Shown here piece by piece: positions 1-27,383 of a stretch of 64,000 bases of DNA. The first letter of the stretch is position 1. Each line of letters starts with the position of its first letter. A program made the translations under genes and the position numbers. The stretch is from the NCBI GenBank assembly GCA_964431495.1, contig CAYSJU010000001.1:31574-95573 (forward strand). The letters run 5' to 3'. This DNA is from an uncultured Planctomycetia bacterium. Lineage in GTDB: Bacteria; Omnitrophota; Gorgyraeia; Tantalellales; Tantalellaceae. Below the pieces are notes generated by a model, which worked only from the letters and a program-made list of their open reading frames with translations, searched no databases and was not told the origin of the DNA.

Positions 1-1
1 G

Positions 2-6000: not shown

Positions 6001-9000
6001 ATTCAGGGATTTTCTACAAAGCCTGGATATGGAAGCCCTTTCAGCCGAGGGGATAACGGACAAAGCTCAGTTCATTGATTATTTGAGAGTAAAGGCATTG
6101 GAGCAGGGATATACCCAAAATGAGATAACATCATTGCTGGAAAATCATGCAATTATGGGCAGTGAAAATCTTGTAGAATTCATAGCCACCCTCGGGAACC
6201 TTGCGGAAGAAAACAGCGCCATTCAGTACTTTATCCTGGCACTCAGTGCTTCGGGAGAAAACTACTTAAAAGACCTGGGTATAGGAAATAAAGCCGATCT
6301 TATCACGTATTTACAAGAGAAAGCAATGGAGAGAGGTGATTCTGGAACGGACATCACAACACTTATGGAAAGTTATATAGAATCAGGAAGTGAAAGTCTG
6401 GAAGAACTTCTTAGTATGCTTAATGCATTCCCCGGAGCCAGGGATACATACGTGCTCAGGGGGGTACAAACGCTTATTGAAGGAAGATTAAGTGACATTA
6501 TCTCTCTTGAAACGCAAAACCTGGAGAGCCTGAATACCCGCTGTATAGATCTCAGAAATTCCATTCCATGGGGTGAAGTCCCGTTCGCTCCCGGCCAGGA
6601 TACTATGGAATTCGAATGGGAGGGGAGTAAGGTCCTTGTCACTCGCAAACAGGTCGACGAATACCGTGAAAGGATAAAGAGTTCGGGCGCTAAAACCGTT
6701 GAAAGGCAGGTAACACAGTTAGAAGTAGCTGTAGCCACAATATCAAGCAGGGCCAGGAATATTTTGCGCAGGACCGGTAATGCTACGTTCAGAAGGAGGA
6801 TTGTAAATAAAGCAGAGGGATCCGTCAAAGAGGTGCTGAAGGAATGGCATAAATATCTGGAAGGAAAGATCAGTGAAAGGGACCTGGATATACTGGAAAG
6901 GGCCATGGATAAGTTCAAGCTGGTAGATGCGGATAGGACCATAAGCATGTTTACTCAGGCAACCAATTCCCTGCTCGCTGATGTCAATACAATAAGCCGT
7001 GCTGAAGGCATTTCAGAGTTTACAAGCTGGCTTCTTTTCAAGATGAACGAAATACTTGATCCGGCTTCAGAGTCAGGGGTTGTCAAGGAGATATCCGATG
7101 TTGAGAAAGGCGCGGTAAGAAAAACCGTGCAGGACCGGTTCAACGAACTTGTTGAAGAGCTTCTCGGGGCGGAGGTGGATCCTTCTATCATAGGAAGGAT
7201 CAGGGAAAACACGGATGAAATAAAGGACGAAATAGATGGGGACAACAGGATAGGAAGGCTTACGGTTCTTACGAAGGAGATGACGGATACCATCAAATCC
7301 ATAGCTTATGGAAAGCAAGGCATGGAACTTATGGAAGCTGTTCTAAGGTCCAAGATCGGAGACAATGTCACAAAGGAGAACATCGGCCGGGTAATGACCG
7401 CTCTCGGGATAACCGGAAAAGAACTGGAGATGTGCCAGGTACACATACTGGAGAAGGAGAAGATCGAAGACAGATTCGAAAGATTTGCCGAGTTCATATT
7501 ACAGTTAATGTTCACGGGTGCTGTCAGCGCGGACAGGTTAAGAGAGGTTTTCGGCCAGGAGGCTGCTGATGGAGTAATAAAGGAGGCCTCTAAAGGCATA
7601 ATGCTCGGTGAAAGGTTAAGAGAGAAAGTAAAAGAACTTGAGGGGAGGCTGCAGAAGAATTTTCAGGACAAGAATACGCGGATGGAGTTCGCTGCCGCGT
7701 ATCAACTGGGCGCTATTCTTACATTTGGCAACGCGCCTTTTGTTGAACAGATAATAACCGGGCTTGACATGGCAGACGACTTTTTCGTGGACATGGCTAC
7801 CGGCGCTGGTAAAACCCTTGCGTACCCCCTCGCAAACATGTTGGGAAGGTGCCGTGGCCTAAAAAATATCCATTTTGTCACTCATGACTATTATACGGAA
7901 AGGGATTACAGGGAGACGCATTTTCTTTACCAGGTCATGGGATACAATGTTTCTTATCAGAGAGGCGATCAAAGGGACCTGGGAGAAGCCGCGAAAAGGC
8001 TTGAAGATAATGATGTAGTGATAATGTCGTACGGAACGTGCAGCTTTACCTGTCTTGACGGGGTCAGGGACAGGACCCGTCCCGAAAGCGCGAAATGGTT
8101 CGACCTTTTAGCAAAGACCCGGCTCACGTTTGATGAATGTGATGTCGCGCCACGGCTCGCTGATTTCATCATGGCCGCGGCCCAGAACAAGCTGACCGTA
8201 AGAGAGTTCATGAGATATCACGTCCTGATGGAGACTTCAAAACGGCTTTACGACGAAGGCGGTATAAAGGAGATATATTCCCTTCTTGAAGATAATATCA
8301 CAAGAGTGAAACAGGGAGAAACGGACGAGACCGAACAGCTTGAGAAACTTGGCTCAATGCTTGGGATCGAAAAGGAAGATGTTGAGTTTGACAGCGCAGG
8401 CGATCTTGTGATCAAGTCCGTCACTGATGGGAAAGAATACACCCTGCCTGCCGTAAGAAGGAAAGCAGAGCTTATTGATGTCAATGGGACAAAATTCGGG
8501 GTCAAATATTCGGATAGGGACGGTTTTGTGATAAGCAGGATGGAATGGGTCGGTCATGCAGACCTGAGCGAAGGCGAAATAAAGAAAAGAATAGAAGATG
8601 CCGGAAAAAAAGGGAGAAGATTGAGCAGACGCCAGGCCATTGAAGAGCTGAGTAAGGAGGCAACAGAAAGGAGCGGGGTGAAGATAGACCTTACTTCCAG
8701 AACAGCTAACGCCGGAGAAGAGACCAGAAGCAGGGTAGAGGGGATCATGAAAGAGATGAGCTTTTCTCTCAGTGAAATGTTCCCCGAACTTGCGGAGAAA
8801 ACTCCTACCTGGGATGAATTTCTGGATACCGTAAAAGCAATGTATGTTGACGATGAAGGTGTTGATTACATATTAAAGTACCGGCCCAAACTCGGGGCGC
8901 AGCCTATAAAGGTTTTGGAAGAAGAAGGAGTATTAAAAATGACCCAGGAGGATAAGATTATCAAAGAACCCGAATTTAAGGTGGAAGTCCAGCATAACGG

Positions 9001-12000
9001 TTCATATAAGGTCGTTTATAAAGGTATATTCATTGCTCTTTTGAACGATGAATTTTTTAAAGGCAAGGGTGACGATGAGATGGTCCTTGCCATGGGGGAT
9101 AAGAGGTACGCGGTGGCGAAGGGTGACACCGGAGGATATGTTTTCACGGAATCCGGCATGGAAGTAGTGCTTTTGGACAGGGAGACCGGTCGTGAACAGG
9201 GCGGTCAGAGAAAGGACAGGTTCCATACCCTGTACGAGCTGAAACACCAGAAAAGGCCGGGGGACAGGCCTGAAGCGAGGGGTGATAATAAGAGTACCGA
9301 GTATCTGTCTTTCACGGATGTAGCAAGGTTCGCCCATTCCTACGGCGGAGCCTCAGGCTCTGTTTCCACTGCGGCTGATGTTATGCTCAAGATATTCGAG
9401 AAAGCCAAAGGAGTTAAAAAGCTCACCCCGCAGTTCGCGAAAAAGGGCGCTGAAAAGATGCCCGTGTTTGTAACAAGCAATAAGGCGCAGTGGAAGGTGA
9501 CCCTTAACAGGCTGAAAGAGATCTATACCGCGTCTCCGGGGGCCAGTGTGATCGTGTATTTTGACGATATCAAACAAGCGCGCGAATTCGAGGAAGAACT
9601 TGGAAAGATGATAAAAGAGACAGGGCTCGAAAAGGACGCTGGAGGAGAGATAAAGGTCAATGTGTTCGGGGAAGAAGGAATCAAGGAAGTCGAGCTTGTA
9701 GAGAAAGCGGGTAAGCCAAATACCATAACACTGGCTGATTCAAAACTGGGACGCGCGACAAATGTGGAACTTTCCGAGAAAGTCGGTTTTGTGGTAAGGA
9801 ACAGCGCGGAGGCATTAGAAGAATTTCTGACAGGCAAGAAACGCGGGGAAACAGGGCGGGATACACTCACAATAGAAGAAAAAGGTGAAATCAGTAATAC
9901 CGTGGCCCGTTTAGTAGAGCTTCTGGCGGGTATGGAATACATTGAGGAAGAAGACAGATGGGATGAAGGACTCTTTTTTAAGACCGATGTGGCTGAAAGA
10001 GCGAAAAAAAGGGAGGAAATAGAGAACTTTTTAAGGGATCTTGGAGCCGGGCCGGGTAGCATGGTCTGGCAGACCATCAAGCACAAGTATTTTGACGGGC
10101 TGTTCCTGGTGGACCTTTCACCGGACGGCAGTCTCCAGGGAATGGTGCAGAAGTTCGGAAGGAACAGGAGGCAGGGGGATATCGGGTTTGTGGATTCTTT
10201 TTATTCTCTCCAGGAAGGATCAAAGTTTTTCAGGCTGGTGGAAGAGGCGTATAATCCTTCGCATAATCTCCACCGGACCGAAAGGGAAAGAAAGGAAGGC
10301 CTGGTAAAATTCAATGAATTCCTTGACAGGAAAAATCGCATCGGTGAACTTGAGGAACATGTTTTTGATGAAAACGGTCATTATCTCGAAGGAATTGACG
10401 AAGGGATCTTCATGGAATGGTGCGAACTTCAGCAGTATTTCATGGCGTTTATGAGAGACGTGAGGGTCGAGCACCAGAAACGCGCGGATGAGCAAAGGGT
10501 CAGAAAGAACGAGAGCGACAAGAAGACCCAAAAGTATCTTGATCTGGTGAGGGACCTTCCGGTTGATATATATGAGAAGATGGACAAAAATCCTGAGGAG
10601 GCCAGGCGGATCGTAGAGGACAGGCTGACAGCCATACAGGACGAGCATTTTACCCTCGATAAGGTAGATGATGACGGCTGGCTTGACCTTGAAGAGTTCC
10701 TGGGTGTGGTGGAAGAGCATTTTCATATAAACCTTGAGGACAAAGCCAGGTTCTCCCAGGCAAGATTGAAGGAAAGGAATGTGAAAGAACTTTTATTCTT
10801 GAGAGAGCAGTTCAGGAGAGCGCTTATGGATGTTATCCTTTCCGTAGGCAGTGTAACAGGCCGGGCCGGAGAGCCTGTTGCGCTTAACACGGGAAACATA
10901 TTCTATACTTTTATGCTGGATCCGACTACCGGGGATCTGGAGGTCAACAGCGTGCAGCAGCTTTTACCGGACGGGAACCGCCAGGAAATACTTGAAAAGA
11001 GGGACGACGGCACTATCAAGATAGGGGAGGCGGTCTTTACATCGGGGTTTATGGAAGACGGGAGCTTCGCGCTTTTTGATATAAGTGGAAGACCGGTTAA
11101 CAGATTTTTTATAGAACCTTACGTAGACAGGACCGGCGCTGAAGCGGGTTTTAGAATAACCCAGGCGGGCGCTTTTGTCTCTGCTATCAAAGCTCTGTAT
11201 GTAGAGGGGTTGGACAGATTGAAGATGAAGTTGATAAGGGAAGCACGCTATAAGGGAGGGGAGGTAACGGAGACGGATATTTCAGAGACCGGACTTGCCG
11301 CGGCTGCCATAGAAGTGTCAAGGGAGAGATATATTGATAAGCGTGATAAGACAGCGGAATATGATTCACCGGAAGCTCAGCCGATAATAAGAGATGCCAC
11401 GGAAACAATACACGGCAGTCTGGACAAGCTCGGTAAAAGACTGGCTGAGCAGGATAAGGCAGTGGATGAACTGGCAGTGGAAAATCTTGAAAAAGAGAAA
11501 CAGTGGGACTCTATCAAGCTTGCTCGTTCCGTAAGACGTTCCACAAGAAAAGCGGATGAAGAAGTGGCATCCCGGGTAAGGGACGCAGGCGTTATCACTG
11601 TCCAGGAAGAGGCACAGGAAGCCCGGCTGGATGAAACAGCGGCGATCACAGCGCAAAGCATTTATTCTGTTTCAAGAACGAATGAACTGGTTGCGGCTCT
11701 TGAAGGTATCACAGGAGTTGAAATAAGAGAGGGTGAAGTCAAAAGGCGGGATGAACGGGACAGGAAAGATATGCAGATGGAATATACCCGGGAACAAGAG
11801 GAAAGAATTGAAGCAGCGCTGGAATACCAGGAAAGAATAAGCAGTCAGCACAGGCAGAAACTGGAAAGAGGAGAAGGAAGTGTTATAGGGGACAGGGTCT
11901 TTGTAACCGTGGATAAACCAGAGGGACAAACCATCAGTGATGCGGAAGTGGAACAGTGTTTTTCTGTTGGCGCAGCTCCTTCAGGGGCTGGTGGTGCCGA

Positions 12001-15000
12001 AGCTCCGCCAGAGCCGGGGATTATCATGGTTGCCTCTGCCCGGGAATTACAGGGTCTTTCAGATGAGGATAAAAGGCAGCTGGCAAATGAATTGGATAAT
12101 CGGTTTGGCAAAGCAGGAGAAACCATAGCGGTGGCGTTTAACAGCTTGTCAGAGGGAGAGTTTGATGAGGATGAAGAGACCGCAAGATTCAGTTTTTCAG
12201 GATTAAGGGTCTTTGACAGGGCAAGCATGAGCAGCCTCCGCGCGGAAAGAGAATCCCTCCGGGACAGCACAGAGAAGGAAAAGCACGTGTTGACCCAGGA
12301 GAAACTGGAGAAGAAATTAGAGCTGTCCCCGGAGGACAAGGACGAAAAGGTCTTTATAAAAAAGGTCGGGACTTCCAATTTCATGGTGATTGTCGCGGAT
12401 GACGGCACTACCTATGTCCGGGATCTGGGGAAAGATGTATTACCACAGACGAAACGGGAGGTCGTGCGTGCCAATGCTGTTCTTTCAGGCAAAGACAGAG
12501 AGAGCAGAAAGGCCGGGCTCAGGGCGGACGAGTATATAGTGAATGAAAGTGGTGTTTTTGTGAGAATGGAAGGTGTTCCCGGCGCGCCGGGTTCGGACAA
12601 ACCGCCTGTTCCATTGTTTGATGTTCTAGTCGATATCAATCTGACCGGTAAAGAAGAGATCGGAGAAAGACTTCCTTTGACAAAGGAAACCGGCCGTCCG
12701 GAGATGAGAGGGGTCTGGTCCCAGACCCGTCGCCGCGGCAGAGGAGTTGGTAACGCCATAAAAGGCGTCTTTGTGAGATTCGGTAGAAGGGCATTAACAG
12801 CAAAAGAGTGGATAGATTACAGGGTCGATCTTGTCTATAGAAGTCATGGATTTTTCCGGTCCCTCCTGCCCGCTGTTCCCAAAGTAATAATAAGCAGATT
12901 TATTATAGGTATTCCCAAGTTCATGTTCAAGGATACACGCCGGCGTTTCGGTCTCTGGAGGGAAAGGAGGAAAGCGGCTTATAAACGAAAAGCAAGCAGG
13001 CTTGAGCAGAAGTGGAGAAGAGGCGAACTTTTCCACAGATTGGATTATAGACTGAACAAAATTAAAAAAGATCCCTCTGCCGGAAAGATCAAAAAGGGTT
13101 TTGCCAGCGTGGGATCATGGATACTCAGGGCAAGCTTTAAGAAGACTTATTACTGGATACGGACCGGCGCTGGTAATGCCTTTTTAGCAATAAGCATTGT
13201 TTTCGTGCTTCGCGTTGCTTTCTGGGAATTGCCAAAGGGCATATTGAAACTGATATTCGTCCTCCCTGTCAGGAAATTCAGGGGCTGGCTTAAGAAAAGA
13301 AAAGAGATGAAAGAACCCGAACTGGAGTCTGAAGATGTAATAAGATCCAGGCTGCCTCAAATTGTACAGGAAGGGACGATTACTGAAGAGCGGGCAGTTG
13401 AAGAAGCCCAAAAGCTTACCGGCGCGGAACTCCAGGTTCCGGAGACGCACTCGGTCAGGGTCAGGCGGATAGCGGAGTTACTGCAATACCTGTCTCAGGA
13501 AGGCCTGGACAGGTCTGATCCAGAATATGAGGCCGCCTGCAGGGAGATAGGGCAGATCCTTTTTGATATGGCCGAAGACGCTGAAAAGATCGGGACAGAT
13601 CTATGGAAAGAAAGGGCCAGGGAGCTGCGCCTGAACGCGTTCAATTATATGTCGATCGCGGCAGCGCTGGATAAAAAGGATATGACGGCAACAGCGCTTC
13701 TTGGCATTATTTTACATTCTATGGGAGATGATGGAAAGGCTAAGAAATTGCTGGAGAAAGCAGTGAAAAAAGGCGTTCCACAGGATGCGAACATGACCAT
13801 GGCGTGCGTTGTTCTCGGCAAGATGCTTGAGGATGAGGCGGACAAGAGTAAGGACAGGGAAGATTATAAAAAGGCCGCCAGGGTGTACCAGAAAGCAAGG
13901 ATGTCTGACGTGACACTCCTTGGAGAAGATATCTCCATAACCGAAGCAAAGGCGCGTTGTCTGGAAAATGCTAAAAAGAAGGCAAAAGAGGAGGAGAAGA
14001 AACCCTCAGCGGGGCAGCAGATGAAAAAGATGCTTGGTGAAAGCTTCAAGCTGAACAAGCTGATGGGAAGTAAACGCCAGAGGATAATTGCAGGGGTGTT
14101 AGCCGGGACAGTGGTCATTATTGCGATCTTCGCGCCCGGGCTTCTTCTGGCGGTTGCCAGCACCCTGGGTGGAGTTAAGTTGCCGGTTTTATCCTGGGGA
14201 TTGGCCCAGATAGCCTCCCCTCTGCTTATACTCGCGGAAGCCGGCGGAATAGTGGCAAAACTTTTTGCCCTCAGCAAGGTGGCCTTTAGTTTCACAATGA
14301 TAATCAGGTTGTCAACAGGAGCTGGTCGCAGGGTATATGGCATTTTCACCAATCCATTAGCCATAAGGCGCATGGTCCGGACTGAAAGACAAGCGATGAA
14401 GAGAGCTCCTGGCCAGGCTGAACCGCGCATAGGCCTTATTAAAGTCTATGAATCCATGGACAAAACTTCAAAAGCCGCAAGGCAGGTGAACAGGACCTCG
14501 AAGAAGATTAGAAAAGGAAAGATGTCTCCTGAAGAATCCGCGAAATTCATAGAATTTCTTTTTGAAAGAAGCAAGAAGGAAAAAGAGGAAAAAGAGGAGG
14601 AAGAAGAGATGGGATTCCCGGGGTTCCCGGGGACTCCCGGACTCGGAGCGGTAAGAAGAAAACCCAAAGCTGAGGAAATGAAAAAGGAAGAGGCGAGTAA
14701 GGAGGAAAAGCAGAGAGAAAAGGAAAGAGAGACCGCTGAATATCTTTTCCGGGCTGTATATGCCAGCGCGGAAACTCCTGAAGACCGCGCTAAAGCTTAC
14801 CTTCTCAGGGGAAGACTGGCGCTCAGGAGTGAACCGCCCGAAGTTGTGCGCATGAGGGACGGCCCTGAGGACTTTGTTGATATAGCTGTCTACTCCGCGG
14901 ATCAAATAGTTGACAGAGTGGATGAGCTGGAAAGTAAGAGCGCGGCGACAGCAGAGGAATCGCAGGAGCTGGAAAAGTTGAGGCCCTTTGTGACCGACGC

Positions 15001-18000: not shown

Positions 18001-21000
18001 TGTCCTTCTGGCTGCCAAGGGGATCACAGGTGATGAAAACGCTAGCCAGAATAAACGCCAGAAAAAGCTTGATGAAATAAAGAGACCGTTGACAGAGGTG
18101 TTAAAGGATATCGAATCCAGCAAAGAAGAGCTGGTTGATGTAGAAGCGGAACTGACTGATCTGGAAGAAAGGAGAGGATCGCAAGAGGGGCAAGAGAGAG
18201 ATACTATTGCCGTTCAGAGCACTGATATCGCATCCGCGGTCAACAGGGCTTTTGAATGTATTGTGGACGGTAAATATGATACCGATAACGATAATGTGAA
18301 AAAGGCCGTAGAATTCCTGTCCTCGCTTTCACCTTTTGAAGAACTGCCGCATGAGGCTCAGGATGCCATAGTATCGAATATAGCGCTTTTACAGCGATAT
18401 GAAAGGGCATTGGAAATATCCGATAAAGCCGAGGGTGTTAAAAGACGGGCGTTCATCACCCGGCTTTTACTGGACTTACATTTCAAGGGAGACCATGACA
18501 TGCTAATGGGAAAGGCAAAGGTTGAGTTCATGGGGAACAAACCTTCTGGAACACTGATAGCTCTTGAACAGATCGACGGGGGATACGAAGGTCTGGGAGA
18601 GAAGATAGAAGTCACTGAATTTTTGGATTATATATCGGAAAAGATGCCCGAAGAGGGTCGCGGTGAACTTATAAACACGCTTTACGGGCTTCTCGAAACT
18701 GTAGACGGGACCCAGGACCCGGTCCTGAGAGCTGGTATTACGCGGAACATCTATAACTTGATTGATTTGGAAACGGATCAAGATCTGACCAGTGAAGAAA
18801 ATTTTACGGAAGAAGGGACCTTTAAAGATGAAAAACGTGAAATAATAATAAAGAAAAGTCTTACTGAATTGCTCAAGGAAAAAGAAATAAATGAAGCGAT
18901 CGCGGGAACAGAGGGGTTCCTGGAGGATCTGTTGTCAATATTTGAGACACTGAAGAAAGATGAAAAAGACTGGAAACAGATGGGCTGGCAGGACCAGATA
19001 GAGTTTCTGATGGATTTCTTTGTTGAGAAGGAGCAGCCCGAAGACCTGGTCGAAAAGATGGAACAGGCGAACAGAATGAAATTGTATGATGTCATGGAGA
19101 GAACGGAGGATGTCGAGCGACGAAAGGCGGCGATAGAGCAGATCCTCAGGCAGGAGGTCGACGTATTACCGGAGTCGAGGAATAACGATTTTATCAAGGG
19201 AAAAGCTTACGAACTTATGTCTCTTGATAAGGAATCCGCGCTGGCCGGTTATTTCCTGGGTGTTGCGGCGTATCAAAGCGGCAGAAGGACAAAGGAGGGT
19301 GAAGCAAAAAGACAGGAGGGCTATTCCCGCGCTGATGCTATTGAGCGGCTGAAGAAGTATCTGGAGAAAAATAAGGATGACGAGCAGGCGCTTCTTTTCC
19401 TCGCGGACATTTATGAAGCGAGGCACGATGAGATGTTCGCGGAAAACCGTAATAAAGAAGGATATGATCCGGAAGCGTCCCGGCATTTTGATGAACTTTC
19501 CGGTCATTTTATTAATAAATATGATGAAAAGATAAAAGAGAAAGATGAACCTGCCGCGGCAGAGGCCCTTTCCGAAGCGCTGAAATACATTGACCTGGCC
19601 ATAATATGCGATCCCCGCAACTCTGGTTTCAGGATCAAACAGGCAGGTATCTTCAAGAAAATGGGAGAGGATGAAGCGGCAGCGAGGGAAGCGGAGACCA
19701 TTATCGAAGTAAGCGTGGAAAAACCGCTGTTCGCGCCCATTGTTACCGTGGAAGACAAGAAAGAGGCAAATACATTGCTTGCGGATATAAGGATCAGTGA
19801 GGGAGATCTCCGCGGCGTTCAGGATATGTTAGAGGGGAGGATGAACCGGGTGACCAGGATGGGAAAAACAGCTCTGGCAGCCGCAGTGATATTAGCTGCC
19901 GCGGGTTTTCCTCTTGGCGGCCTGGTGCTTGGGAGCATTGCGGTCCTGGCGGCCATTATTTCTCATATTACGCTTATAAGGATCCCTGCCGGCATAGCTG
20001 CCCGGCTTGCGCTTATACACATGCGCCTGGGCGACAGAGGCAGGACCGGAAGATACATGAGGCGCATGCGCAGGAGAATAGAAAAACAGGGAGAAAAAGT
20101 AGACGCTGATACACTGGGTATTCTCGCAGATGAACTGCAGACGTGGGCTGGCGCACCTGAAAGGCCTGATAAAGACAGGTATGTAGTTTACGGCGAGATC
20201 GTGGACTTAAGAGAGATGAGGAAAGAGTCCCCGGCTGTAAGCGAGGATGAGGAAAACAAACGTATTGCCGGATTAAAGATGGAACAGGCCCGGATGGAAA
20301 GGCCTTTAGGCTTGCGGCGGAGGGAAAAACGAAGGCAGGATCATCTGGAAAACAGAAAAGGGCTGTTAAATGCGGCTAAAGAAGCGGATCCCGACCTGTC
20401 TGATGAAGCTGATCAGATGCTGATGGCTATAAACAACAAGGAGATCGAACGGCTCGAACGCCAGCAGAGGCGTTTTCAGAGGGTAAGGAACAGGCGGTTT
20501 GTCAGAAGGTTTTTCCATGATGTAGCCGAAAACATTATTCCGCTTTACCTGGATAATGCCGGATTACTTGTTGAGCTGTTCGAGAAAGAAAGCGATCCTG
20601 CCAGTCTTAGCGATCTCAGGGGACAGGCATACGATGCTCTGACCTTTGCAAGGGAGATCGCTGAAAGGGACAGGAAAGATTTGCCGGAAGAGCATGGAAA
20701 ATTAATGGCCAGGATATTTGTCAGCCTGGGAGACGAGAACAGGGGAAGACGCGAGTATGATACCGCGCTTTCAGATTATGATCTGGCCATTGAGCAGGAT
20801 GATAATAATGCAAAAGCCCATCTAGGGATAGCTCTTGCACTTAAGGAACAGGGCGCTGATCCGGAGCTTATCGCGGAGCATCTCGATAAAGCCCTTGAGC
20901 TTGAACCTTCTCTTGACGAACCCGGGGCCGAGAATTTTGAGGGTTTAGTTGAACTTTATAACAGCCTTGGAAAGCATGACATGGCGGAGGCCGCGGCAGA

Positions 21001-24000: not shown

Positions 24001-26374
24001 CGTATTACAGCTTCAGATCATGACATTTGTTGATACGGTAAATGACATTAAAAATACTCTGAAAATGGATTCCGTGTTCAATCTTAATCCTGATATAGAC
24101 GTGACCTTTGGACTTGCCGCCGCATACCTTGACATGATCTCCGGTAACGGGGCAGGAGCAACCGCTGTTTTGCGTTCCATTAATCCAAGAAGTGACGAGG
24201 ACAGGGCAGAATTCGTCTTTGCCAAGATGCGTATGCAATTGGCGGCTGGTGAAACGGATAGCGCTGAATATTCCCTGAAAATAATGGGAGCATTGGATCC
24301 TGGCATGACGCCTTCCGCAAGGATGTTGATCGCTGAAAAATATCTGGAACTCGGAAAGAAGGCTCGAGGAGGTAGCAGGGAACAAAGACAATATCTCGAA
24401 AGAGCCGTGTCTTTATGGCCTAAATTCCTGGAAGCACATGTGGCTCTTGCGATCTTATACGCCAAAGTAAAAGACACGGCAGCAAGGCGGGAGGAGGACC
24501 GGTTCATCGCCCGTATAAGAACGGATATTGCTGAGGAAAGAAATTTAAGCCCCGTGCAAATGAGATGGGACAGGGGAGAAGAGGCAAGGAAGCACCTGAT
24601 AAAAGCTCCGGTTCTTGAAAGGCTGACATATTTCGGTATACCGGTAGGGGTAACGTTATTAGCGGGATTCAGGGGCATCAGCAGCATATGGGCGCTTCTC
24701 GGAATTGTCCCCATGGGGACGATATTCGGAGTATTTTTTGCGATAATGCAGATACCGTTTATTGTGAAGTTTATACAGGAACATAGGGGTGAAAGAAGAA
24801 TGGCATGGATGGTATCTCTTGGAAGCTTTGCCCTGCCGTTACTGGTGTTATTCGCTCCTTTTGATCTGGCCCCTGCGGCCCTTATCGGAATAGCAATTGG
24901 TTTTCACGCGTTTGCCAATTTAACGGTATTCACATTGAACACGATTACAAGGAGACAGATCTTCAATTACGCGACAAAAGAGGTCGGGTTGCCCGGACTG
25001 CTTCCCGAGATGCCGCTCCCGCCTCCGGTAGAAGCTGTTCCTTCCGTGGCTGTTGTAGGTGTTGTGGAAGGTGATGAAGATGAGATGGAACGGTTGAGTG
25101 GGGAATATCCTGATATTCGATTTATTTCGATAAAAGAAGGAGGCGAAGCGGGAATAAAACAAATGGAAACTGTAATGGGTCCGGTAACAAGGTTCCTTGT
25201 TGATATGACCCCCGAAGATGTGCTTGAGAATATGGACAAGATTGTTGAACAGGCCCAGAGGCAGTCTTTTGTGGACATGTATCCGTATCTGGCGGGTCTG
25301 GATGCCCGGTCCATCAGGAACCTGGACAAGACGGACCTTGAAGGGGCGATGCAGGTAGTAAGTGTGTCAATGCCGCAAGAAAGACCCATGGAAGAAGGTG
25401 TCCTGGGATCGCTTTATGCGGCTTACATCTCCGGCGTGGCGCCTGATACGGCTCTGCCCGCGGGTATTGCCCCGGGAGATCAGGAAGCCTGGGTCAGGGA
25501 GAACGTCCGGGCGCTTAAAGATTATGAAGAGACTCAAAGCATGGGATTGCCGGTTGAAGCGCCTGAAAAGAAACTGCTTGCCTTACACGCCGGATTGGAT
25601 GATTTTCTGCGGGATAGATCCAGGGATGATATAAACAGGATACTCATGCGCCATGAAGGCATCGCCATGGCTCAAGGCATGGAGGATGAAGTCGTGGGAC
25701 TCATGTCTGAATTCAGAAATGCCGGTCTCATCCCAAAAGAGGCGCCTCAGTCCATAGTGATCGATGCCAGGAAAGATTCGGGGTTTAGACTTGAATACAT
25801 GGTGCCGGCTCTCCTGGATTTTGCCGGGAAAGCCCCGCTTTTGCATATAACCGTGATAACAGAACCCGGTGTTGATCTGACCGAATTCATCCCCGGGGCA
25901 GAGATGCCGGATAACCTTTCCCAGATGGACAGGATTCTGGAAGAGGTGCCTTTGTCGGAGCAGGTCAAGGGGCACCTGGAAGATATGGGCAAGGATATAC
26001 CTTTGCCTTCGGTTTCAATAGCCACAGGTGAATTTATGACGGACAAGATCATAATCAATGTAAAAGATGCCGGGACCCAAGGCGCGAACTTTGTCATAGC
26101 CGGTGAAGAGATGCTGGCGCCTGATGACGAGGCCGCGAAAAGGATACACCGCCTTATACCCGCGATAGCGGCCATGAACCTTTTAAGGCGGGCGGCGGAT
26201 GAACGCAAGGCTCCCAGCATAGTGGCTATGGGATGCGGAGAAGATACGATAAACGATATCATGACGCGCCTCAAGGACGTTCTTCATACACTGGTCAGGA
26301 TAGCGAGACTTGATATCGGTGAGGCTGTAAGAGCGTTTATCGACAGCTTGCATGAAGTTGCGGCTGCCGTATAA
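2..26374 (+). CDS. Giant multi-domain membrane-associated protein, truncated at the 5' window edge (8,791 codons in window). Contains a SecA-like motor, TPR/helical arrays, charged spacers, TM clusters and a C-terminal alpha/beta domain.
   Basis: One reading frame with no stop from nt 2 to TAA at 26372-26374. The frame is open upstream of the first ATG (nt 32), and that ATG has no Shine-Dalgarno, so the true start probably lies before the window. Recognisable motifs are listed in the sub-features. Confidence 0.9.
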   Translation, partial: TFDEASLRADMIQEENKDADFERGGGIVTFDEDHVPAAIAEEEGLALPLSEDADLAQIENDLKRTAFQLRAGEIESDSVEDIYGCYTGRNVEAPQKSGIVNKLIEKALSLRTPGVYLIRAPPNLFFAVRVNRHGEVDLFKIDTLFSGSNDEIQGKFAGIIEEAGREAAAVRKSGEKVDAGRQQFGFEVINTLYGHDNAGSVIAVISHHITDIFKKDQDISGKELVRELADRMNGVFGIENGFRTVVTASHVREQDAESRAETTGRDFASTMLERANELLEARDVVLEGSRIEGNLIKDDTDYSAPEVEKAIRENISLEETYQMERGEEVLARADARLMKKAEGFLAAVEERISAKEPVWAYEERGGGISDRGARFTHEEINSGIRGLFDRFRRVFGVFVLEDMGLVIGNDRLGMPVYDLEGLRGLLESRTEQRKELSDVEIRLVNGRLVVIADNIYTHCGRRSGQVWIDRKDLKAKRVELKSKHGLADGESEGMALEALIRHEQGERDSLLAQARQHFLRETGRDTASDKEIVEWIEDEENVSDQKFNIWLKTAHEDAKKTEKRYVRVQLARVPGYDELKEMPVEVMGRIIVRLEKAGNIEGAGSIVDTLLELHESGELRGAWTEADISRFNSVQRRLAYQIEVMRQLKALPDLDRLEEMSINEFGALIGRLERQRDFEAAEMVAGVLLGLHDRGELRGEWVEADIRLYRNRKKRFGYRNKLELARAAVGRVITRARHEEFHEKQGYREILLEIGKEIGAPFDGERYDFRTALREAEDGRIRIERADGTITEIYETEDGILVIMDTRIDVGHAGRTQLAVYANHTGNQAQAAHELAELRGWIDFAVVQGLAAKDDILTRRVDLGGLLMGYMRDEANFYRAMDQVERLHQEGLRAEAEAQGLRYMAPAEITGALVTFESGVDYDFIIASTLGDEAELEGMGLRVQESSDELRGALTRARGLLRAVNELTEETDKLAKADELVEVARLVRDRAARALENVSEYAAFAARIAEATAGDRVSAIARVADELARNAQSYIAFDHEYVQEAEESARAGNIDSLVRAVSNLISGVTFSSGAIRVALAVTEAESAGEVAAIVLRAAANKAVDHDFTEAGRYARAAAEIAGEGYIAEKADELATVAAEAQSELVDELAGKAVGAGNIEKAAQMGNIIRFDPAIIGKMRVARAIKEEVEEEAPPKAEEEVPVEEEVEEEVPAEEEVAPEEEGKSQLESADRDIRIAVEQAKDGDAVAAEKSVKDAFEAWSSAAENFLKAATAAKERNNANAARAYTVRAAEVWAVAAEKLKEASSETWDVFHERFSGATPVTRSVIDRIGRFAYNASDYQARALGKALGFFEQIAAERAETKDAVSAVKFARRATDICVSLATQEKFAVEFIAFLVKDIDISAEMAATINEQAQSVKAAAAKAAEDAAKYWEDIDNAAEKIFFRRDAMEARAAAEKTDALVRKVADFAEKTVAAKDRKAKEEERDRTRIAVAREKADKALGEIEGLIAEAQAKADEAAIKAAAKIGAPEEAVADATAGVYSEGIAQVNTFKFLIKGSAEIAAKAATVKEAEDAAKAAAKSVELAVKFNNVAESVDDAKTLFEKVVALAQAAADFVKIAELPMVTVCAELAAEFAQATGVSVDGSENHVSGVGDLLNNIAMYARQGDAEKAERNAVAAVRRLRKAAAGKEAERAREKAPPVEGVGAEKAREEAARKEAEAEAARAKAEKATEEIEKAWEEADWKQAEAEAAWMKAEAETLREEAFRKGEEAEPARAEADRKGTEAEAAGEEADRKEEEARKAREEASRKEAESEALEEITRIFIDKTLNRANRISELSEIATRSEKVLLRRYARRALGRILDRKYTDIDFVLEIEPGTILSVYNGINRESREPGAVEDIRILDAIMESCFLEDRDSDLFINALDITERNIETVCDILSDDITYLKTEIQTLGRAPVIDLEAQTEAVNDLRKQIAAKKAVLDSMVKRQFQLREYRDLREEDRFRDFLQSLDMEALSAEGITDKAQFIDYLRVKALEQGYTQNEITSLLENHAIMGSENLVEFIATLGNLAEENSAIQYFILALSASGENYLKDLGIGNKADLITYLQEKAMERGDSGTDITTLMESYIESGSESLEELLSMLNAFPGARDTYVLRGVQTLIEGRLSDIISLETQNLESLNTRCIDLRNSIPWGEVPFAPGQDTMEFEWEGSKVLVTRKQVDEYRERIKSSGAKTVERQVTQLEVAVATISSRARNILRRTGNATFRRRIVNKAEGSVKEVLKEWHKYLEGKISERDLDILERAMDKFKLVDADRTISMFTQATNSLLADVNTISRAEGISEFTSWLLFKMNEILDPASESGVVKEISDVEKGAVRKTVQDRFNELVEELLGAEVDPSIIGRIRENTDEIKDEIDGDNRIGRLTVLTKEMTDTIKSIAYGKQGMELMEAVLRSKIGDNVTKENIGRVMTALGITGKELEMCQVHILEKEKIEDRFERFAEFILQLMFTGAVSADRLREVFGQEAADGVIKEASKGIMLGERLREKVKELEGRLQKNFQDKNTRMEFAAAYQLGAILTFGNAPFVEQIITGLDMADDFFVDMATGAGKTLAYPLANMLGRCRGLKNIHFVTHDYYTERDYRETHFLYQVMGYNVSYQRGDQRDLGEAAKRLEDNDVVIMSYGTCSFTCLDGVRDRTRPESAKWFDLLAKTRLTFDECDVAPRLADFIMAAAQNKLTVREFMRYHVLMETSKRLYDEGGIKEIYSLLEDNITRVKQGETDETEQLEKLGSMLGIEKEDVEFDSAGDLVIKSVTDGKEYTLPAVRRKAELIDVNGTKFGVKYSDRDGFVISRMEWVGHADLSEGEIKKRIEDAGKKGRRLSRRQAIEELSKEATERSGVKIDLTSRTANAGEETRSRVEGIMKEMSFSLSEMFPELAEKTPTWDEFLDTVKAMYVDDEGVDYILKYRPKLGAQPIKVLEEEGVLKMTQEDKIIKEPEFKVEVQHNGSYKVVYKGIFIALLNDEFFKGKGDDEMVLAMGDKRYAVAKGDTGGYVFTESGMEVVLLDRETGREQGGQRKDRFHTLYELKHQKRPGDRPEARGDNKSTEYLSFTDVARFAHSYGGASGSVSTAADVMLKIFEKAKGVKKLTPQFAKKGAEKMPVFVTSNKAQWKVTLNRLKEIYTASPGASVIVYFDDIKQAREFEEELGKMIKETGLEKDAGGEIKVNVFGEEGIKEVELVEKAGKPNTITLADSKLGRATNVELSEKVGFVVRNSAEALEEFLTGKKRGETGRDTLTIEEKGEISNTVARLVELLAGMEYIEEEDRWDEGLFFKTDVAERAKKREEIENFLRDLGAGPGSMVWQTIKHKYFDGLFLVDLSPDGSLQGMVQKFGRNRRQGDIGFVDSFYSLQEGSKFFRLVEEAYNPSHNLHRTERERKEGLVKFNEFLDRKNRIGELEEHVFDENGHYLEGIDEGIFMEWCELQQYFMAFMRDVRVEHQKRADEQRVRKNESDKKTQKYLDLVRDLPVDIYEKMDKNPEEARRIVEDRLTAIQDEHFTLDKVDDDGWLDLEEFLGVVEEHFHINLEDKARFSQARLKERNVKELLFLREQFRRALMDVILSVGSVTGRAGEPVALNTGNIFYTFMLDPTTGDLEVNSVQQLLPDGNRQEILEKRDDGTIKIGEAVFTSGFMEDGSFALFDISGRPVNRFFIEPYVDRTGAEAGFRITQAGAFVSAIKALYVEGLDRLKMKLIREARYKGGEVTETDISETGLAAAAIEVSRERYIDKRDKTAEYDSPEAQPIIRDATETIHGSLDKLGKRLAEQDKAVDELAVENLEKEKQWDSIKLARSVRRSTRKADEEVASRVRDAGVITVQEEAQEARLDETAAITAQSIYSVSRTNELVAALEGITGVEIREGEVKRRDERDRKDMQMEYTREQEERIEAALEYQERISSQHRQKLERGEGSVIGDRVFVTVDKPEGQTISDAEVEQCFSVGAAPSGAGGAEAPPEPGIIMVASARELQGLSDEDKRQLANELDNRFGKAGETIAVAFNSLSEGEFDEDEETARFSFSGLRVFDRASMSSLRAERESLRDSTEKEKHVLTQEKLEKKLELSPEDKDEKVFIKKVGTSNFMVIVADDGTTYVRDLGKDVLPQTKREVVRANAVLSGKDRESRKAGLRADEYIVNESGVFVRMEGVPGAPGSDKPPVPLFDVLVDINLTGKEEIGERLPLTKETGRPEMRGVWSQTRRRGRGVGNAIKGVFVRFGRRALTAKEWIDYRVDLVYRSHGFFRSLLPAVPKVIISRFIIGIPKFMFKDTRRRFGLWRERRKAAYKRKASRLEQKWRRGELFHRLDYRLNKIKKDPSAGKIKKGFASVGSWILRASFKKTYYWIRTGAGNAFLAISIVFVLRVAFWELPKGILKLIFVLPVRKFRGWLKKRKEMKEPELESEDVIRSRLPQIVQEGTITEERAVEEAQKLTGAELQVPETHSVRVRRIAELLQYLSQEGLDRSDPEYEAACREIGQILFDMAEDAEKIGTDLWKERARELRLNAFNYMSIAAALDKKDMTATALLGIILHSMGDDGKAKKLLEKAVKKGVPQDANMTMACVVLGKMLEDEADKSKDREDYKKAARVYQKARMSDVTLLGEDISITEAKARCLENAKKKAKEEEKKPSAGQQMKKMLGESFKLNKLMGSKRQRIIAGVLAGTVVIIAIFAPGLLLAVASTLGGVKLPVLSWGLAQIASPLLILAEAGGIVAKLFALSKVAFSFTMIIRLSTGAGRRVYGIFTNPLAIRRMVRTERQAMKRAPGQAEPRIGLIKVYESMDKTSKAARQVNRTSKKIRKGKMSPEESAKFIEFLFERSKKEKEEKEEEEEMGFPGFPGTPGLGAVRRKPKAEEMKKEEASKEEKQREKERETAEYLFRAVYASAETPEDRAKAYLLRGRLALRSEPPEVVRMRDGPEDFVDIAVYSADQIVDRVDELESKSAATAEESQELEKLRPFVTDALLLRMEALQKRYEKNRTEENGREFLNVLEQLRVLADQMDTEQLERFQTAGIDHKPDEKTSARSYAKSAEEATSIEEAPAIEKKEPAVEEKLFTGDQADRAQREMLEDKLKREKTLLSGERLDLAELYMKEGLYSRAIRQLKKIPRGDDKAALVARMIVLGCLKMKEDPRWFQRLGLIRRFWTFRRAINRLRALGGENTEWADWIASTLYKVRPAGAEEAFEAIAASYMAEPANNDEKVNNELIESGLKAIVGSKRRKVEASRAVENMLAHGSIPDERGPFTELASDNTRKLKETVKKTSKKKLRALVRDLYSIRRKRLERLAAIERKLTPGTDPYEKNRAKRDRLRKEKEKIDRELGPIELDILNRTALLVGANKESPGAVSEISEHGELKYFIRALAGGHEHVSDLMKKLDHIEEGVGKDFLHVLLVDAWLEDRFGQAYDNDKNKPSGVVADRDQLMMHFSVLLSIYGQSENKVLRDIIRSALENISGYDIYGTWDGRKFGRSPVVSDAIESLGEVQEEGIKGLVAEMNEKQGAKNLNEGRSLESKAKEEKDALKRSGLTNKAKRQLGSAMVHLENSMEYYRERLEERGIDRDQRKKALEPIRGLIEAWYGRDAANAVIKVMEEAISEEEDEDELIKRMEPVLDKITFVGTDKDLVKKLLPGLSLKDLITLMNNCGNILSYDEKMTQILARGAGYDMEEWDMAIDAVKDLLGNIDVDDLVKARLDVDIRMNAVQVPVPGDDPEILSEWIILIAGLIKKKKETGLDTTNEMETYEVLKEKLITVLKKRRDREETDEINGALREAGSLISAAEAYEALGEYGKAEEALGKARDMINDLFERNMQLQYEGEELLPEEVMEKCKDKATELAGKLKGVYYRQGKYFDAMMTVARGQKLLAEYTFTVDGVEKEADAQRYINKARETLNNADRLNPYQPDVKLEMMEVDMLRLTIARREVEEAQKKEDEEKEKKEELEKKIEELTEKQEKLEEDLAIVRNRAQAEVVLLAAKGITGDENASQNKRQKKLDEIKRPLTEVLKDIESSKEELVDVEAELTDLEERRGSQEGQERDTIAVQSTDIASAVNRAFECIVDGKYDTDNDNVKKAVEFLSSLSPFEELPHEAQDAIVSNIALLQRYERALEISDKAEGVKRRAFITRLLLDLHFKGDHDMLMGKAKVEFMGNKPSGTLIALEQIDGGYEGLGEKIEVTEFLDYISEKMPEEGRGELINTLYGLLETVDGTQDPVLRAGITRNIYNLIDLETDQDLTSEENFTEEGTFKDEKREIIIKKSLTELLKEKEINEAIAGTEGFLEDLLSIFETLKKDEKDWKQMGWQDQIEFLMDFFVEKEQPEDLVEKMEQANRMKLYDVMERTEDVERRKAAIEQILRQEVDVLPESRNNDFIKGKAYELMSLDKESALAGYFLGVAAYQSGRRTKEGEAKRQEGYSRADAIERLKKYLEKNKDDEQALLFLADIYEARHDEMFAENRNKEGYDPEASRHFDELSGHFINKYDEKIKEKDEPAAAEALSEALKYIDLAIICDPRNSGFRIKQAGIFKKMGEDEAAAREAETIIEVSVEKPLFAPIVTVEDKKEANTLLADIRISEGDLRGVQDMLEGRMNRVTRMGKTALAAAVILAAAGFPLGGLVLGSIAVLAAIISHITLIRIPAGIAARLALIHMRLGDRGRTGRYMRRMRRRIEKQGEKVDADTLGILADELQTWAGAPERPDKDRYVVYGEIVDLREMRKESPAVSEDEENKRIAGLKMEQARMERPLGLRRREKRRQDHLENRKGLLNAAKEADPDLSDEADQMLMAINNKEIERLERQQRRFQRVRNRRFVRRFFHDVAENIIPLYLDNAGLLVELFEKESDPASLSDLRGQAYDALTFAREIAERDRKDLPEEHGKLMARIFVSLGDENRGRREYDTALSDYDLAIEQDDNNAKAHLGIALALKEQGADPELIAEHLDKALELEPSLDEPGAENFEGLVELYNSLGKHDMAEAAAERIEARFLKAKKEELGKKAKQARKKSEAPQLEDVVQTGVEIERLRKEIEEKEEIVAALPDGDKGEPYYTYAENDLELDKAELKAREEDLGNNMTRFKELVNKGEVFNAVIGNMRGQPLDEAMEQLSVFHDLLKKQNLLSAKNISDPVDLALAERYEQKGDLEKAEEHLKPVLEAVPSTLGHVKANLVIKAYLLHAKVLVRTDKETRFEDAVDSLSRAAGWISGLNENFKDRRLVSDAFDSFKDVLRSLEEAGLSFDVYMKYRDNLFDIFEQLSVLGEDADAARLAADAALKNITDRSRGFIGNALFDKRIKDVLKAPFLQAILDAIPRDRTVLNKLQGLQEHLEMVLDSRDNDLRVRANLIMGLLTGRGRKARNLIKEAVTADESLKNTALVVRGLARTYILYFPRNIALRSRARKMEKQTAGEFVRRGNNDFDKEKHHGAIRNYEKAIDLDSSLKENKDIKEKLSKAYEEDKGTLMSRFRRLFWRKEKKLLLGTDLLRKALEFATDEDRKPAVRNSLISNLTALSTLMTTRFVNMRSAEQRKKWQDFQARMSDINTEIGKLHADNMILHQEKKHSAEAEASFNNAKGALTMAVKFNPENMEARNGLERLGEEVPAEETAEQLIRKARDKVKEGEFEEALSLLDEAVEKDKDKESEVKDDKGNIEEVNKITDAILDYFMRKAYIAEYAGLSDTNDPDGSKRKGIQNRFMRELSGNFQNRQETGSNIFEEWFRLSDREDVTRGSELRQFADMSIRGAGEEKPAIKPGIRDMFFHRGLIMAERLVGERNTAKALHLLALLRGIRTSKKAQLLAATCNIMRLGDQEKKPLRDLISEAEQEFISVVVSTPEDKAEKSRLALEVGRLFSGRASSLWRDNQKTDRSQARQEAEEYYKAALKLDPSNSEALQGLVNFYGRERVEELFSDDTRPFVIEAIIRSEDMAALGGLFNTTFQGKDGMLDEGRVEVARALFARIDELKDTEGQEIIRLMKAALPVMRGLKLQDPVLQLQIMTFVDTVNDIKNTLKMDSVFNLNPDIDVTFGLAAAYLDMISGNGAGATAVLRSINPRSDEDRAEFVFAKMRMQLAAGETDSAEYSLKIMGALDPGMTPSARMLIAEKYLELGKKARGGSREQRQYLERAVSLWPKFLEAHVALAILYAKVKDTAARREEDRFIARIRTDIAEERNLSPVQMRWDRGEEARKHLIKAPVLERLTYFGIPVGVTLLAGFRGISSIWALLGIVPMGTIFGVFFAIMQIPFIVKFIQEHRGERRMAWMVSLGSFALPLLVLFAPFDLAPAALIGIAIGFHAFANLTVFTLNTITRRQIFNYATKEVGLPGLLPEMPLPPPVEAVPSVAVVGVVEGDEDEMERLSGEYPDIRFISIKEGGEAGIKQMETVMGPVTRFLVDMTPEDVLENMDKIVEQAQRQSFVDMYPYLAGLDARSIRNLDKTDLEGAMQVVSVSMPQERPMEEGVLGSLYAAYISGVAPDTALPAGIAPGDQEAWVRENVRALKDYEETQSMGLPVEAPEKKLLALHAGLDDFLRDRSRDDINRILMRHEGIAMAQGMEDEVVGLMSEFRNAGLIPKEAPQSIVIDARKDSGFRLEYMVPALLDFAGKAPLLHITVITEPGVDLTEFIPGAEMPDNLSQMDRILEEVPLSEQVKGHLEDMGKDIPLPSVSIATGEFMTDKIIINVKDAGTQGANFVIAGEEMLAPDDEAAKRIHRLIPAIAAMNLLRRAADERKAPSIVAMGCGEDTINDIMTRLKDVLHTLVRIARLDIGEAVRAFIDSLHEVAAAV
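7684..10560 (+). other. SecA-like ATPase motor region (NBD1 - PPXD-like insert - NBD2 - helical scaffold) inside the giant ORF
   Basis: Motifs appear in SecA order. They are: FVEQIITGLDMADDFFVDMATGAGKT (Walker A, nt ~7750-7815); VTHDYYTERDY; SYGTCSFTCLDGVRD; LTFDECD (DExD box, nt ~8129-8143); VVLLDRETGREQGGQRKDRFHTLYELKH (nt ~9163-9250); SFTDVARFAHSYGGASGS; TLADSKLGRATNVEL (nt ~9731-9775); GRNRRQGDIGFVDSFYSLQE (nt ~10156-10220). Confidence 0.8.
12848..13270 (+). other. Hydrophobic/basic cluster 1 of the giant protein (putative membrane-inserting or amphipathic segments within an Arg/Lys-rich stretch)
   Basis: FFRSLLPAVPKVIISRFIIGIPKFMF and AFLAISIVFVLRVAFWELPKGILKLIFVLPV sit inside a very basic region (RRRGRG..., RRRFGLWRERRKAAYKRK, KKRKEMK) spanning nt ~12720-13320. 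Confidence 0.55.
14084..14330 (+). other. TM cluster 2 of the giant protein (about 3 hydrophobic helices)
   Basis: IIAGVLAGTVVIIAIFAPGLLLAVASTLGGVKLPVLSWGLAQIASPLLILAEAGGIVAKLFALSKVAFSFTMIIRL. Confidence 0.7.
19859..20020 (+). other. TM cluster 3 of the giant protein (about 2 hydrophobic helices)
   Basis: MGKTALAAAVILAAAGFPLGGLVLGSIAVLAAIISHITLIRIPAGIAARLALIH, followed by an Arg-rich stretch (RLGDRGRTGRYMRRMRRRIEK). Confidence 0.7.
24623..24945 (+). other. TM cluster 4 of the giant protein (about 4 hydrophobic helices)
   Basis: LTYFGIPVGVTLLAGFRGISSIWALLGIVPMGTIFGVFFAIMQIPFIVKFIQEHRGERRMAWMVSLGSFALPLLVLFAPFDLAPAALIGIAIGFHAFANLTVFTL. Confidence 0.7.
25027..26371 (+). other. C-terminal alpha/beta domain(s) of the giant protein. 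It ends in a motif shared with the 1,932-aa and 988-aa proteins.
   Basis: Short hydrophobic strands alternate with helices (VAVVGVVEG, IRFISIKE, LLHITVITE, KIIINVKD, FVIAGEE, SIVAMGCGE). The terminal sequence LKDVLHTLVRIARLDIGEAVRAFIDSLHEVAAAV aligns with the C-termini of the CDSs ending at 42283 and 45499. Confidence 0.6.
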
Positions 26375-26486: not shown

Positions 26487-26558
26487 AGATCCCGCGTTCC
26501 CAGGGCAAGTTTACATTTATCAATAACTGTGATATAGTTGTGCCCGGGGATACAGCAT

Positions 26559-27374: not shown

Positions 27375-27383
27375 AGTACCCGC

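Follow-up and report, generated by a model that had tools for sequence, protein, structure and literature searches.

A segment deep inside a giant protein of an uncultured Omnitrophota bacterium can be identified by its sequence as a DEAD motor of the SecA type, as opposed to a generic helicase. SecA is well known as the motor that drives protein export in bacteria with ATP; the variant described here comprises the DEAD motor together with a putative, remodelled preprotein-binding domain (PPXD), and we classify it as such and not as a complete SecA. It is encoded in a 64,000-nucleotide stretch of contig CAYSJU010000001.1, which we analyzed at full length (the window), within an open reading frame (ORF) of at least 8,780 codons. 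SecA-like motors in giant Omnitrophota proteins have been known since 2023, the window hence offers a further example that is not new in kind.

The original prediction, which was made from the DNA letters and their translations, had listed eight SecA segments in canonical order between positions 7684 and 10560. We found all eight in a single frame, at residues 2570-3395 (nt 7739-10216), and this interval encloses every one of the motif strings (Table 1). Pfam SecA_DEAD matched residues ~2527-2683 with 52.7 bits (E=4.8e-14, gathering cut-off 24.6), i.e., a significant SecA profile match was present. The other two Pfam models with which the prediction was to be checked, SecA_PP_bind and SecA_SW, gave no match. 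The generic Pfam DEAD model reached 17 bits (E=0.005), which is under its own cut-off and 35 bits below SecA_DEAD. A phmmer search against the PDB returned 20 SecA or SecA2 sequences and nothing else at E<0.1, the best being E. coli SecA (8e-10); the same SecA-only picture emerged with the whole N-terminal 4,400 residues as query. The match to E. coli SecA ran over two stretches, one with the SecA-specific lead-in helices, the F-x-x-Q motif, Walker A and motif Ia, the other leading from the PPXD exit ('IVDEHTGR...') via motif III to motif V. An hhalign comparison of a six-member family alignment with 57 SecAs yielded a probability of 100% (E=3.8e-39) over residues 2529-3396. It spanned the nucleotide-binding domain NBD1, the PPXD exit strand, motif III and all of the second nucleotide-binding domain, NBD2, and ended right after motif VI and a 'SLED'-like turn. 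Moreover, it took in the N-terminal lead-in and the 'IVDEFTGR...GLHQA.EAKE' PPXD exit, which are SecA-specific and absent from generic DEAD-box helicases. With SecA_DEAD over its cut-off, PDB matches confined to SecA and SecA2, and this profile alignment, the predicted SecA-type motor was borne out.

The word 'complete' in the original prediction had to be given up. Canonical SecA requires the scaffold/wing and the SecB/zinc tail for SecY docking and autoregulation, and we detected neither of them. Pfam SecA_SW had no match at E<=1 in the giant protein and six family members, and Pfam SEC-C, which represents the SecB/zinc tail, had none in a scan of the whole giant protein. When the region following the motor was aligned to the SecA C-domain with hhalign, the probability was 1.5%, and a hidden Markov model (HMM) of this region retrieved nothing significant from 150 SecA-like proteins with hmmsearch. 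The PPXD escaped recognition by Pfam SecA_PP_bind in 6/6 family members. The NCBIfam secA equivalog (TIGR00963/PRK12904) scored 54.6 bits versus a cut-off of 800, and the NCBIfam SecA2 models scored 32-42 bits versus cut-offs of 725-1,085.

The N-terminal part of NBD1 holds the lead-in helices, the F-x-E-Q motif, Walker A, motif Ia (VTHDYYTERD), a SYGT...LDGVRD segment and Walker B, and Lys2594 was aligned to the Lys of the E. coli SecA GEGKT. An insertion occupies the PPXD position between Walker B and motif III. About 220 of its residues were without a SecA counterpart in the full-length hhalign; within it lie two beta-rich sub-regions and a core that resembles the PPXD weakly (...VKIDLT...FLDTVKAMYVDDEGVDYILKY). 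Taken alone, the PPXD-site segment matched SecA PPXD weakly (hhalign probability 7.7%, E=0.0046), and this weak bulb match paired 'VKIDLT...' and 'FLDTVKAMYVDDEGVDYILKY' with 'Dy.vd.k.k.v.LTe.G' and 'aLkA..l..kd.DYiV', respectively. The exit strand and the return into NBD1, which are largely conserved in the family, contain VVLLDRETGREQGGQRKDRFHTLYELKH, GDNKSTE and GASGSVST as the motif III equivalent. Pfam P-loop_SecA, the model for NBD2, matched 6/6 family members at E<=0.1 (best 1.1e-11), with the window sequence at 17 bits and under the 27-bit cut-off. Motifs V and VI are separated by an insertion of ~130 residues, the length of which varies within the family. For the region after the motor, a 51-residue helix was predicted at residues ~3457-3507. 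This helix may be analogous to the scaffold helix of SecA, homology being not demonstrable.

We modelled the module with AlphaFold2, which from the single sequence gave a predicted local distance difference test (pLDDT) score of 37. Secondary structure in the AlphaFold2 model followed the order of two alpha/beta lobes with a beta-rich insertion between them. In a Foldseek search of the PDB with the model, the top 17 matches were all SecA or SecA2, with probabilities up to 1.00 and E-values down to 2.7e-6; the top match was a SecA2, and the DdmD and XPD helicases stood far down the list. Two RecA lobes and a PPXD, the fold that the original prediction had expected, are thus suggested locally by secondary-structure order and 3Di similarity, and not by a global superposition.

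An exhaustive HMMER search of 1.84 billion representative proteins (E<=1e-3) yielded 282 proteins. The top dozen were giant or truncated-giant proteins with 26-59% identity, among them P0001 (7,055 aa), P0002 (5,332 aa), P0006 (7,334 aa) and P0008 (4,748 aa), and were followed by ordinary SecAs. A word-indexed homologue search gave no match with the module alone and two ordinary SecAs only with the family profile; the word index apparently does not reach these giant proteins. When GTDB genomes were scanned, the single sequence retrieved 0 loci and the family alignment 7 loci, four of them labelled Candidatus Omnitrophota (including Ca. Tantalella remota) and three labelled 'uncultured Planctomycetia'. 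The closest relatives, at 43-50% identity, were found in metagenome-assembled genomes of Candidatus Omnitrophota, Ca. Tantalella remota included. Judged by these relatives, and not by a marker-gene phylogeny, the window would belong to an Omnitrophota-type bacterium. Both the giant relatives and the seven GTDB loci are collinear with the window protein from residue ~2150 to the C-terminus. As the same architecture is found collinear in eight independent assemblies, an assembly chimera is excluded. The related loci end inside the giant ORFs, so that the comparison covers these ORFs and not the neighbourhood downstream of them.

A sliding comparison of seven aligned members identified the motor as the best-conserved part of the family. 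Identity was 56% in residues 2551-2700 and 3001-3150 and 44-45% in residues 3151-3450, compared with mostly 15-30% elsewhere. We checked the catalytic motifs in nine sequences, including members down to 26-29% overall identity: TG[AS]GKT, DECD and GR..R.GD were present in all nine and LGRAT[ND]V in eight. In the six-member alignment, the motif III equivalent G[AG]SGSV.T and GQR.D..HT.YE were invariant, the strict patterns occurring in 5-6 of the nine sequences. Hence the Walker A Lys, the DExD pair and the Arg, all named as retained in the original prediction, are kept also in distant members (the Arg in both motif V and motif VI), and catalytic competence of the motor is plausible. The conservation maximum at the motor, together with its intact motifs, argues for an enzyme under purifying selection and not for a decayed relic.

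Outside this family, the best matches were enriched in SecA modules within long proteins, i.e., P0012 (5,111 aa), P0028 (3,155 aa) and P0014/P0026 (module at the truncated end). P0028 and P0012 carry less divergent SecA modules; P0028 scored 121 bits with SecA_DEAD and 57 bits with SecA_PP_bind, and had a weak SecA_SW match of 23 bits just under the cut-off. Embedded SecA modules may thus span a range, from nearly complete ones to stripped-down ones. Among the best 150 matches, 45 were 620-699 residues long and began with a start-codon residue (such proteins include P0016, P0017, P0020, P0021 and P0025). Three proteins of this length class were scanned and had strong SecA_DEAD, SecA_PP_bind and P-loop_SecA matches with no SecA_SW, and several with viewed ends shared a basic C-terminal tail '...L.F.G'. 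The class looks like a stand-alone, scaffold-less SecA-like family. At least one protein, P0024, is simply a truncated SecA.

Hydropathy agreed with the original prediction of a giant ORF with multiple transmembrane (TM) segments, as hydrophobic clusters were found at four places, all of them downstream of the motor (Table 1). With a length of 48-52 residues, most clusters have the size of a hairpin, and Lys/Arg-rich flanks border them on either side; two of the clusters are conserved in every family member that covers them. Reckoned from the start of the module, the first TM segment follows the motor at a distance of ~1,800 residues (residue 2529 to 4375). Hydropathy scans of the first ~4,370 residues revealed no signal peptide and no TM-quality segment, save a weak stretch at residues 1053-1072. 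This part of the protein is 35-45% charged. Lack of a signal peptide and a charge-rich composition place the first ~4,370 residues probably in the cytoplasm, and the motor thus where ATP is available.

We propose that the module is an active, membrane-tethered, SecA-derived ATPase that handles polypeptides and is not the housekeeping SecA, a reading which we consider probable, if only just. The two RecA-like lobes with their enlarged PPXD insertion would sit in the cytoplasm within a giant membrane-anchored protein. Downstream hairpins would hold the motor to the membrane on its inner face and so replace the lipid and SecY docking of the missing C-domain. ATP-driven opening and closing of the NBD1/NBD2/PPXD clamp would most likely grip and move unfolded polypeptide. 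The substrate may be a partner protein or a stretch of the giant protein itself as it is inserted into the membrane, and candidate channels are SecYEG or the giant protein's own helices. In SecA-N68, loss of the C-domain removes the inhibitory IRA1 brake and results in a deregulated, elevated ATPase. With this brake gone, regulation of the module would have to differ or to come from the conserved post-motor helices. Self-export, export of partners and a Sec-independent role, as raised in the original prediction, are plausible and are essentially the ideas published for such domains, and the published account gives the same reading (West-Roberts et al. 2023, bioRxiv 10.1101/2023.11.21.568195).

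Several observations weigh against this proposal. AlphaFold2 with a six-sequence alignment gave a weak model (pLDDT 59.9, predicted template modelling score 0.28), and Foldseek TM-scores were just 0.1-0.2, which leaves the three-dimensional geometry of the clamp a prediction. Motif V of the window sequence (LGRATNV) has Asn for the canonical Asp, and the family alternates between N and D. The two-helix finger and the scaffold for SecY engagement and substrate pushing were not detectable by hhalign and hmmsearch, therefore canonical SecY-coupled pushing cannot be assumed. Moreover, the positive-inside rule would allow a cytoplasmic location for all of the large soluble regions, as judged by a crude hand-made count of hydropathy and charge and not by a trained predictor; if so, the most obvious need for self-export would be gone.

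A different view is that of an ATP-driven cytoplasmic clamp or remodeller that would help to fold, assemble or mechanically rearrange partners or the giant scaffold of tetratricopeptide repeats (TPRs) and coiled coils, with no passage through a channel. We regard it as unlikely, and still as an alternative that deserves weight. It would account for the undetected scaffold/wing and SecY-directed two-helix finger, for hairpin-like TM clusters with basic flanks on both sides in a protein whose soluble regions may all be cytoplasmic, and for TPRs, which are protein-protein interaction modules, as the only other recognizable domains. SecA also has chaperone-like and ribosome-binding activities. Yet the family has kept its conserved membrane anchors and the PPXD stem that is specific to SecA, and this fits membrane-proximal polypeptide handling, and the topology that favours a purely cytoplasmic role stems from the crude count mentioned above.

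That the module is a catalytically dead relic, with a structural part in the giant protein only, is very unlikely. In its favour are the 54.6 bits against the 800-bit SecA equivalog cut-off, the long branches of such domains (West-Roberts 2023, bioRxiv 10.1101/2023.11.21.568195) and the Asp to Asn exchange of motif V in the window sequence. However, Walker A GKT, DECD, the motif III S/T, the motif V Arg and both motif VI Arg are kept at 26-50% identity, and conservation along the whole protein of 8.8 thousand residues is highest in the stretches that bear the motifs. A nucleic-acid helicase of the DEAD or superfamily 2 type that merely resembles SecA would explain the weak Pfam DEAD match, marginal matches to BLM helicase (E ~0.7) and the DdmD and XPD entries low in the Foldseek list. 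It is extremely unlikely nevertheless, given that DEAD stayed below its cut-off and was beaten by SecA_DEAD by 35 bits, that PDB sequence matches at E<0.1 were all SecA, and that SecA-only features are present (the PPXD-site insertion, the IVDE.TGR...HQ..EAK exit motif and the N-terminal lead-in). It is barely conceivable that the organism's canonical SecA was fused to the giant protein and serves general Sec export. The order and identity of the motor motifs would agree with this, but the module falls short of the NCBIfam equivalog cut-offs for SecA and SecA2 ~15-fold or more, SecA_SW and SEC-C were not detected, and complete Omnitrophota genomes with such giants also carry normal-length SecA, SecYEG, SecB and SecD (bioRxiv 10.1101/2023.11.21.568195).

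A bolder idea, which we deem distinctly improbable, is that this family of about 9 thousand residues forms a self-contained machine independent of SecYEG or has acquired a new mechanical task other than export. Here, a cytoplasm-facing mega-scaffold of TPRs and coiled coils would be pinned to the membrane by the conserved helical hairpins. The clamp, having lost the SecY finger and gained ~220 PPXD residues, would feed partners, e.g., predation effectors, into a conduit formed by the protein's own 8-12 helices. In the second version of the idea, this clamp would have a new mechanical function instead of one in export.

Divergent SecA domains without scaffold/wing, of the SecA_DEAD and SecA preprotein-binding types, were reported in 2023 for giant proteins of Omnitrophota and some Actinobacteriota; they form a long-branch clade apart from the normal-length SecA of the same genomes, neighbouring TM regions may anchor these domains in the membrane, and they may export the giant itself or accessory proteins (West-Roberts et al., bioRxiv 10.1101/2023.11.21.568195). 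A 2026 preprint (10.64898/2026.06.07.730766) on Omnitrophota proteins of at least 10 thousand residues describes a 20-protein architecture cluster defined by PF07517. The window protein shares with the West-Roberts giants a divergent SecA DEAD motor in a multi-TM protein of the giant Omnitrophota type, an undetected scaffold/wing and a proposed anchoring by neighbouring TM helices, a likeness that rests on the published descriptions and not on direct sequence comparison. In contrast to them, it has a putative PPXD remodelled past recognition by Pfam SecA_PP_bind, and with at least 8.8 thousand residues it falls below the classes of both papers ('large', at least 10 thousand; 'giant', at least 30 thousand). 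TPRs are the only domains found besides the motor, with none of the enzyme, dockerin or peptidase domains that characterize the published Archaeovorin and Dockerin types. In the Dockerin type at least, TM anchors come first and SecA follows, whereas in the window protein the motor comes first, with the first TM segment ~1,800 residues further on.

Canonical SecA of E. coli and B. subtilis (PDB 2fsf, 1m6n, 6itc) has the motor motifs in the same order, an insertion at the PPXD position and a conserved exit strand. It differs in being a soluble protein of 800-1,000 residues, whereas the window module is covalently part of a membrane protein, has ~220 extra residues at the PPXD site and a long insertion between motifs V and VI, and has no detectable helical scaffold domain (HSD), helical wing domain (HWD), two-helix finger or C-terminal tail. 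SecA-N68 (PDB 5k9t) and the isolated DEAD motor (PDB 3bxz), both among the Foldseek or phmmer matches, likewise consist of the DEAD motor with or without PPXD and have no C-domain; however, they are laboratory C-terminal truncations of E. coli SecA. Accessory SecA2 (PDB 6t4h, 4uaq) is comparable as a diverged second SecA with restricted substrates beside a housekeeping SecA, but it retains the scaffold domain and is a stand-alone soluble protein, and NCBIfam SecA2 models scored only 32-42 bits here. The stand-alone SecA-like proteins of ~620-700 residues (P0016, P0017, P0020) share the DEAD motor, PPXD and NBD2 without SecA_SW. Unlike the window module, they are small, not embedded, and strong on the three Pfam motor models (SecA_DEAD 290-360 bits).

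The extent of the giant ORF is given as a lower bound. Upstream of the ATG at nt 32, the frame runs to the edge of the window without a stop codon, so that the ORF may extend 5' of the window; its 8,780 residues and the position of the motor, 'about 2,550 codons in' according to the original prediction, are thus minimum figures. The ten codons preceding this ATG (window 1-31, TFDEASLRAD) resemble VTFDEDHV a few residues on. With the open frame, this likeness indicates that the ORF may start outside the window and exceed 8,780 residues. The window sequence is present in the metagenomes JGI 3300022553 and SRR6481098. Two metagenome pattern scans for the DNA upstream of the window, i.e., for the true N-terminus, gave no match, and a route to it via the downstream TPR gene yielded a 6.5-kb contig only. 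Residues 1 to ~2150 (window 32 to ~6480) are unconserved in relatives, bar one short match in locus L006, and include an Ala/Glu-rich low-complexity stretch at residues ~1000-2000 (Ala 19-24%). Family conservation starts ~400 residues N-terminal to the motor. Besides the SecA-like motor, a Pfam scan of the whole giant protein recognized TPR repeats only. The coding strand of the giant ORF (1-26374) has a GC skew of 0.17-0.27, versus 0.07-0.2 for the ordinary genes at 26375-64000, and a stronger AT skew as well; this strong skew reflects its Glu/Lys/Arg/Ala-rich composition.

Directly 3' of the giant ORF, at 26538-28931 on the plus strand, two genes 9 nt apart encode TPR proteins of 278 and 233 residues, and these genes may share an operon with that of the giant protein, which is itself rich in TPRs. 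They are followed by an IS200-like Y1 transposase ORF of 223 residues with a weak Pfam match. A second large ORF (36437-42283, plus strand) encodes 1,948 residues without a Pfam domain and has a weak SMC-like coiled-coil match at residues ~1300-1400; part of it shares the strong purine (GC/AT) skew of the giant ORF. At 42533-45499 (plus strand), a protein of 988 residues combines an HD/HDIG phosphohydrolase domain (residues ~202-323) with a maturase domain for ribosomally synthesized and post-translationally modified peptides (RiPPs) of the MbnB/TglH/ChrH type (MNIO, DUF692-like; residues ~528-695), an unusual fusion. Further genes of the window have ordinary housekeeping functions in bacteria (Era, MnmE, PurH, AccA, MlaE, FolE, L,D-transpeptidase, glycogen phosphorylase), and neither SecA nor SecY was found among the 20 other ORFs scanned in the 64-kb window.

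Table 1. Features of the giant ORF and its SecA-derived module. Residue numbers count from the first ATG of the ORF, positions are those of the window.
Feature	Residues	Window position (nt)	Strand	Basis
Giant ORF	at least 8,780 from first ATG	32-26374	+	collinear with giant ORFs of eight other assemblies
SecA-derived ATPase module (NBD1, PPXD-site insertion, NBD2)	2529-3396	7616..10219	+	hhalign, PDB SecA matches, family conservation
NBD1, N-terminal part	2527-2704	7610..8143	+	Pfam SecA_DEAD on residues 2527-2683, E. coli SecA alignment
Walker A TGAGKT	2590-2595	7799..7816	+	TG[AS]GKT in 9/9 family sequences
Walker B/DExD box DECD	2701-2704	8132..8143	+	invariant, 9/9 family sequences
PPXD-site insertion, ~340 residues	2705-3044	8144..9163	+	hhalign gap, AlphaFold2 secondary structure
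PPXD exit strand and return into NBD1	3045-3113	9164..9370	+	E. coli SecA alignment; largely conserved in family
NBD2	3114-3396	9371..10219	+	hhalign; Pfam P-loop_SecA in family
Motif V LGRATNV	3239-3245	9746-9766	+	motif in 8/9 family sequences
Motif VI GRNRRQGD	3376-3383	10157-10180	+	motif in 9/9 family sequences
Post-motor helical region	3397-3640	10220..10951	+	conserved W, Q, Q, D, R columns; AlphaFold2 secondary structure
FVEQ...GAGKT	2570-2595	7739-7816	+	motif string located in ORF
VTHDYYTERDY	2616-2626		+	motif string located in ORF
SYGTCSFTCLDGVRD	2666-2680		+	motif string located in ORF
LTFDECD	2698-2704		+	motif string located in ORF
VVLLDRETGRE...	3045-3072		+	motif string located in ORF
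SFTDVARFAHSYGGASGS	3093-3110		+	motif string located in ORF
TLADSKLGRATNVEL	3233-3247		+	motif string located in ORF
GRNRRQGD...	3376-3395	10157-10216	+	motif string located in ORF
First hydrophobic segment, probably a short hairpin	4375-4415	13154..13276	+	hydropathy; partly conserved in relatives
Second TM cluster, two to three spans	4683-4760	14078..14311	+	hydropathy; hydrophobic in 7/7 aligned members
Third TM cluster, 48-residue hairpin	6610-6657	19859..20002	+	hydropathy; only some relatives
C-terminal TM clusters, two hairpins of ~50 residues each	8198-8305	24623..24946	+	hydropathy; kept in 2/2 relatives reaching the C-terminus

A stripped-down second SecA in giant proteins bears on how proteins of 10 to 100 thousand residues are inserted into or moved across membranes. 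It also bears on whether SecA motors can work without the domain that engages SecY, a question raised for Omnitrophota in 2023. To these questions the window adds a compact member of about 9 thousand residues in which SecA is the sole non-repeat domain recognized, and a family alignment in which conservation is strongest in the motor and its catalytic motifs are intact. It also adds a defined motor construct, residues ~2525-3510, that is small enough for expression and assay.

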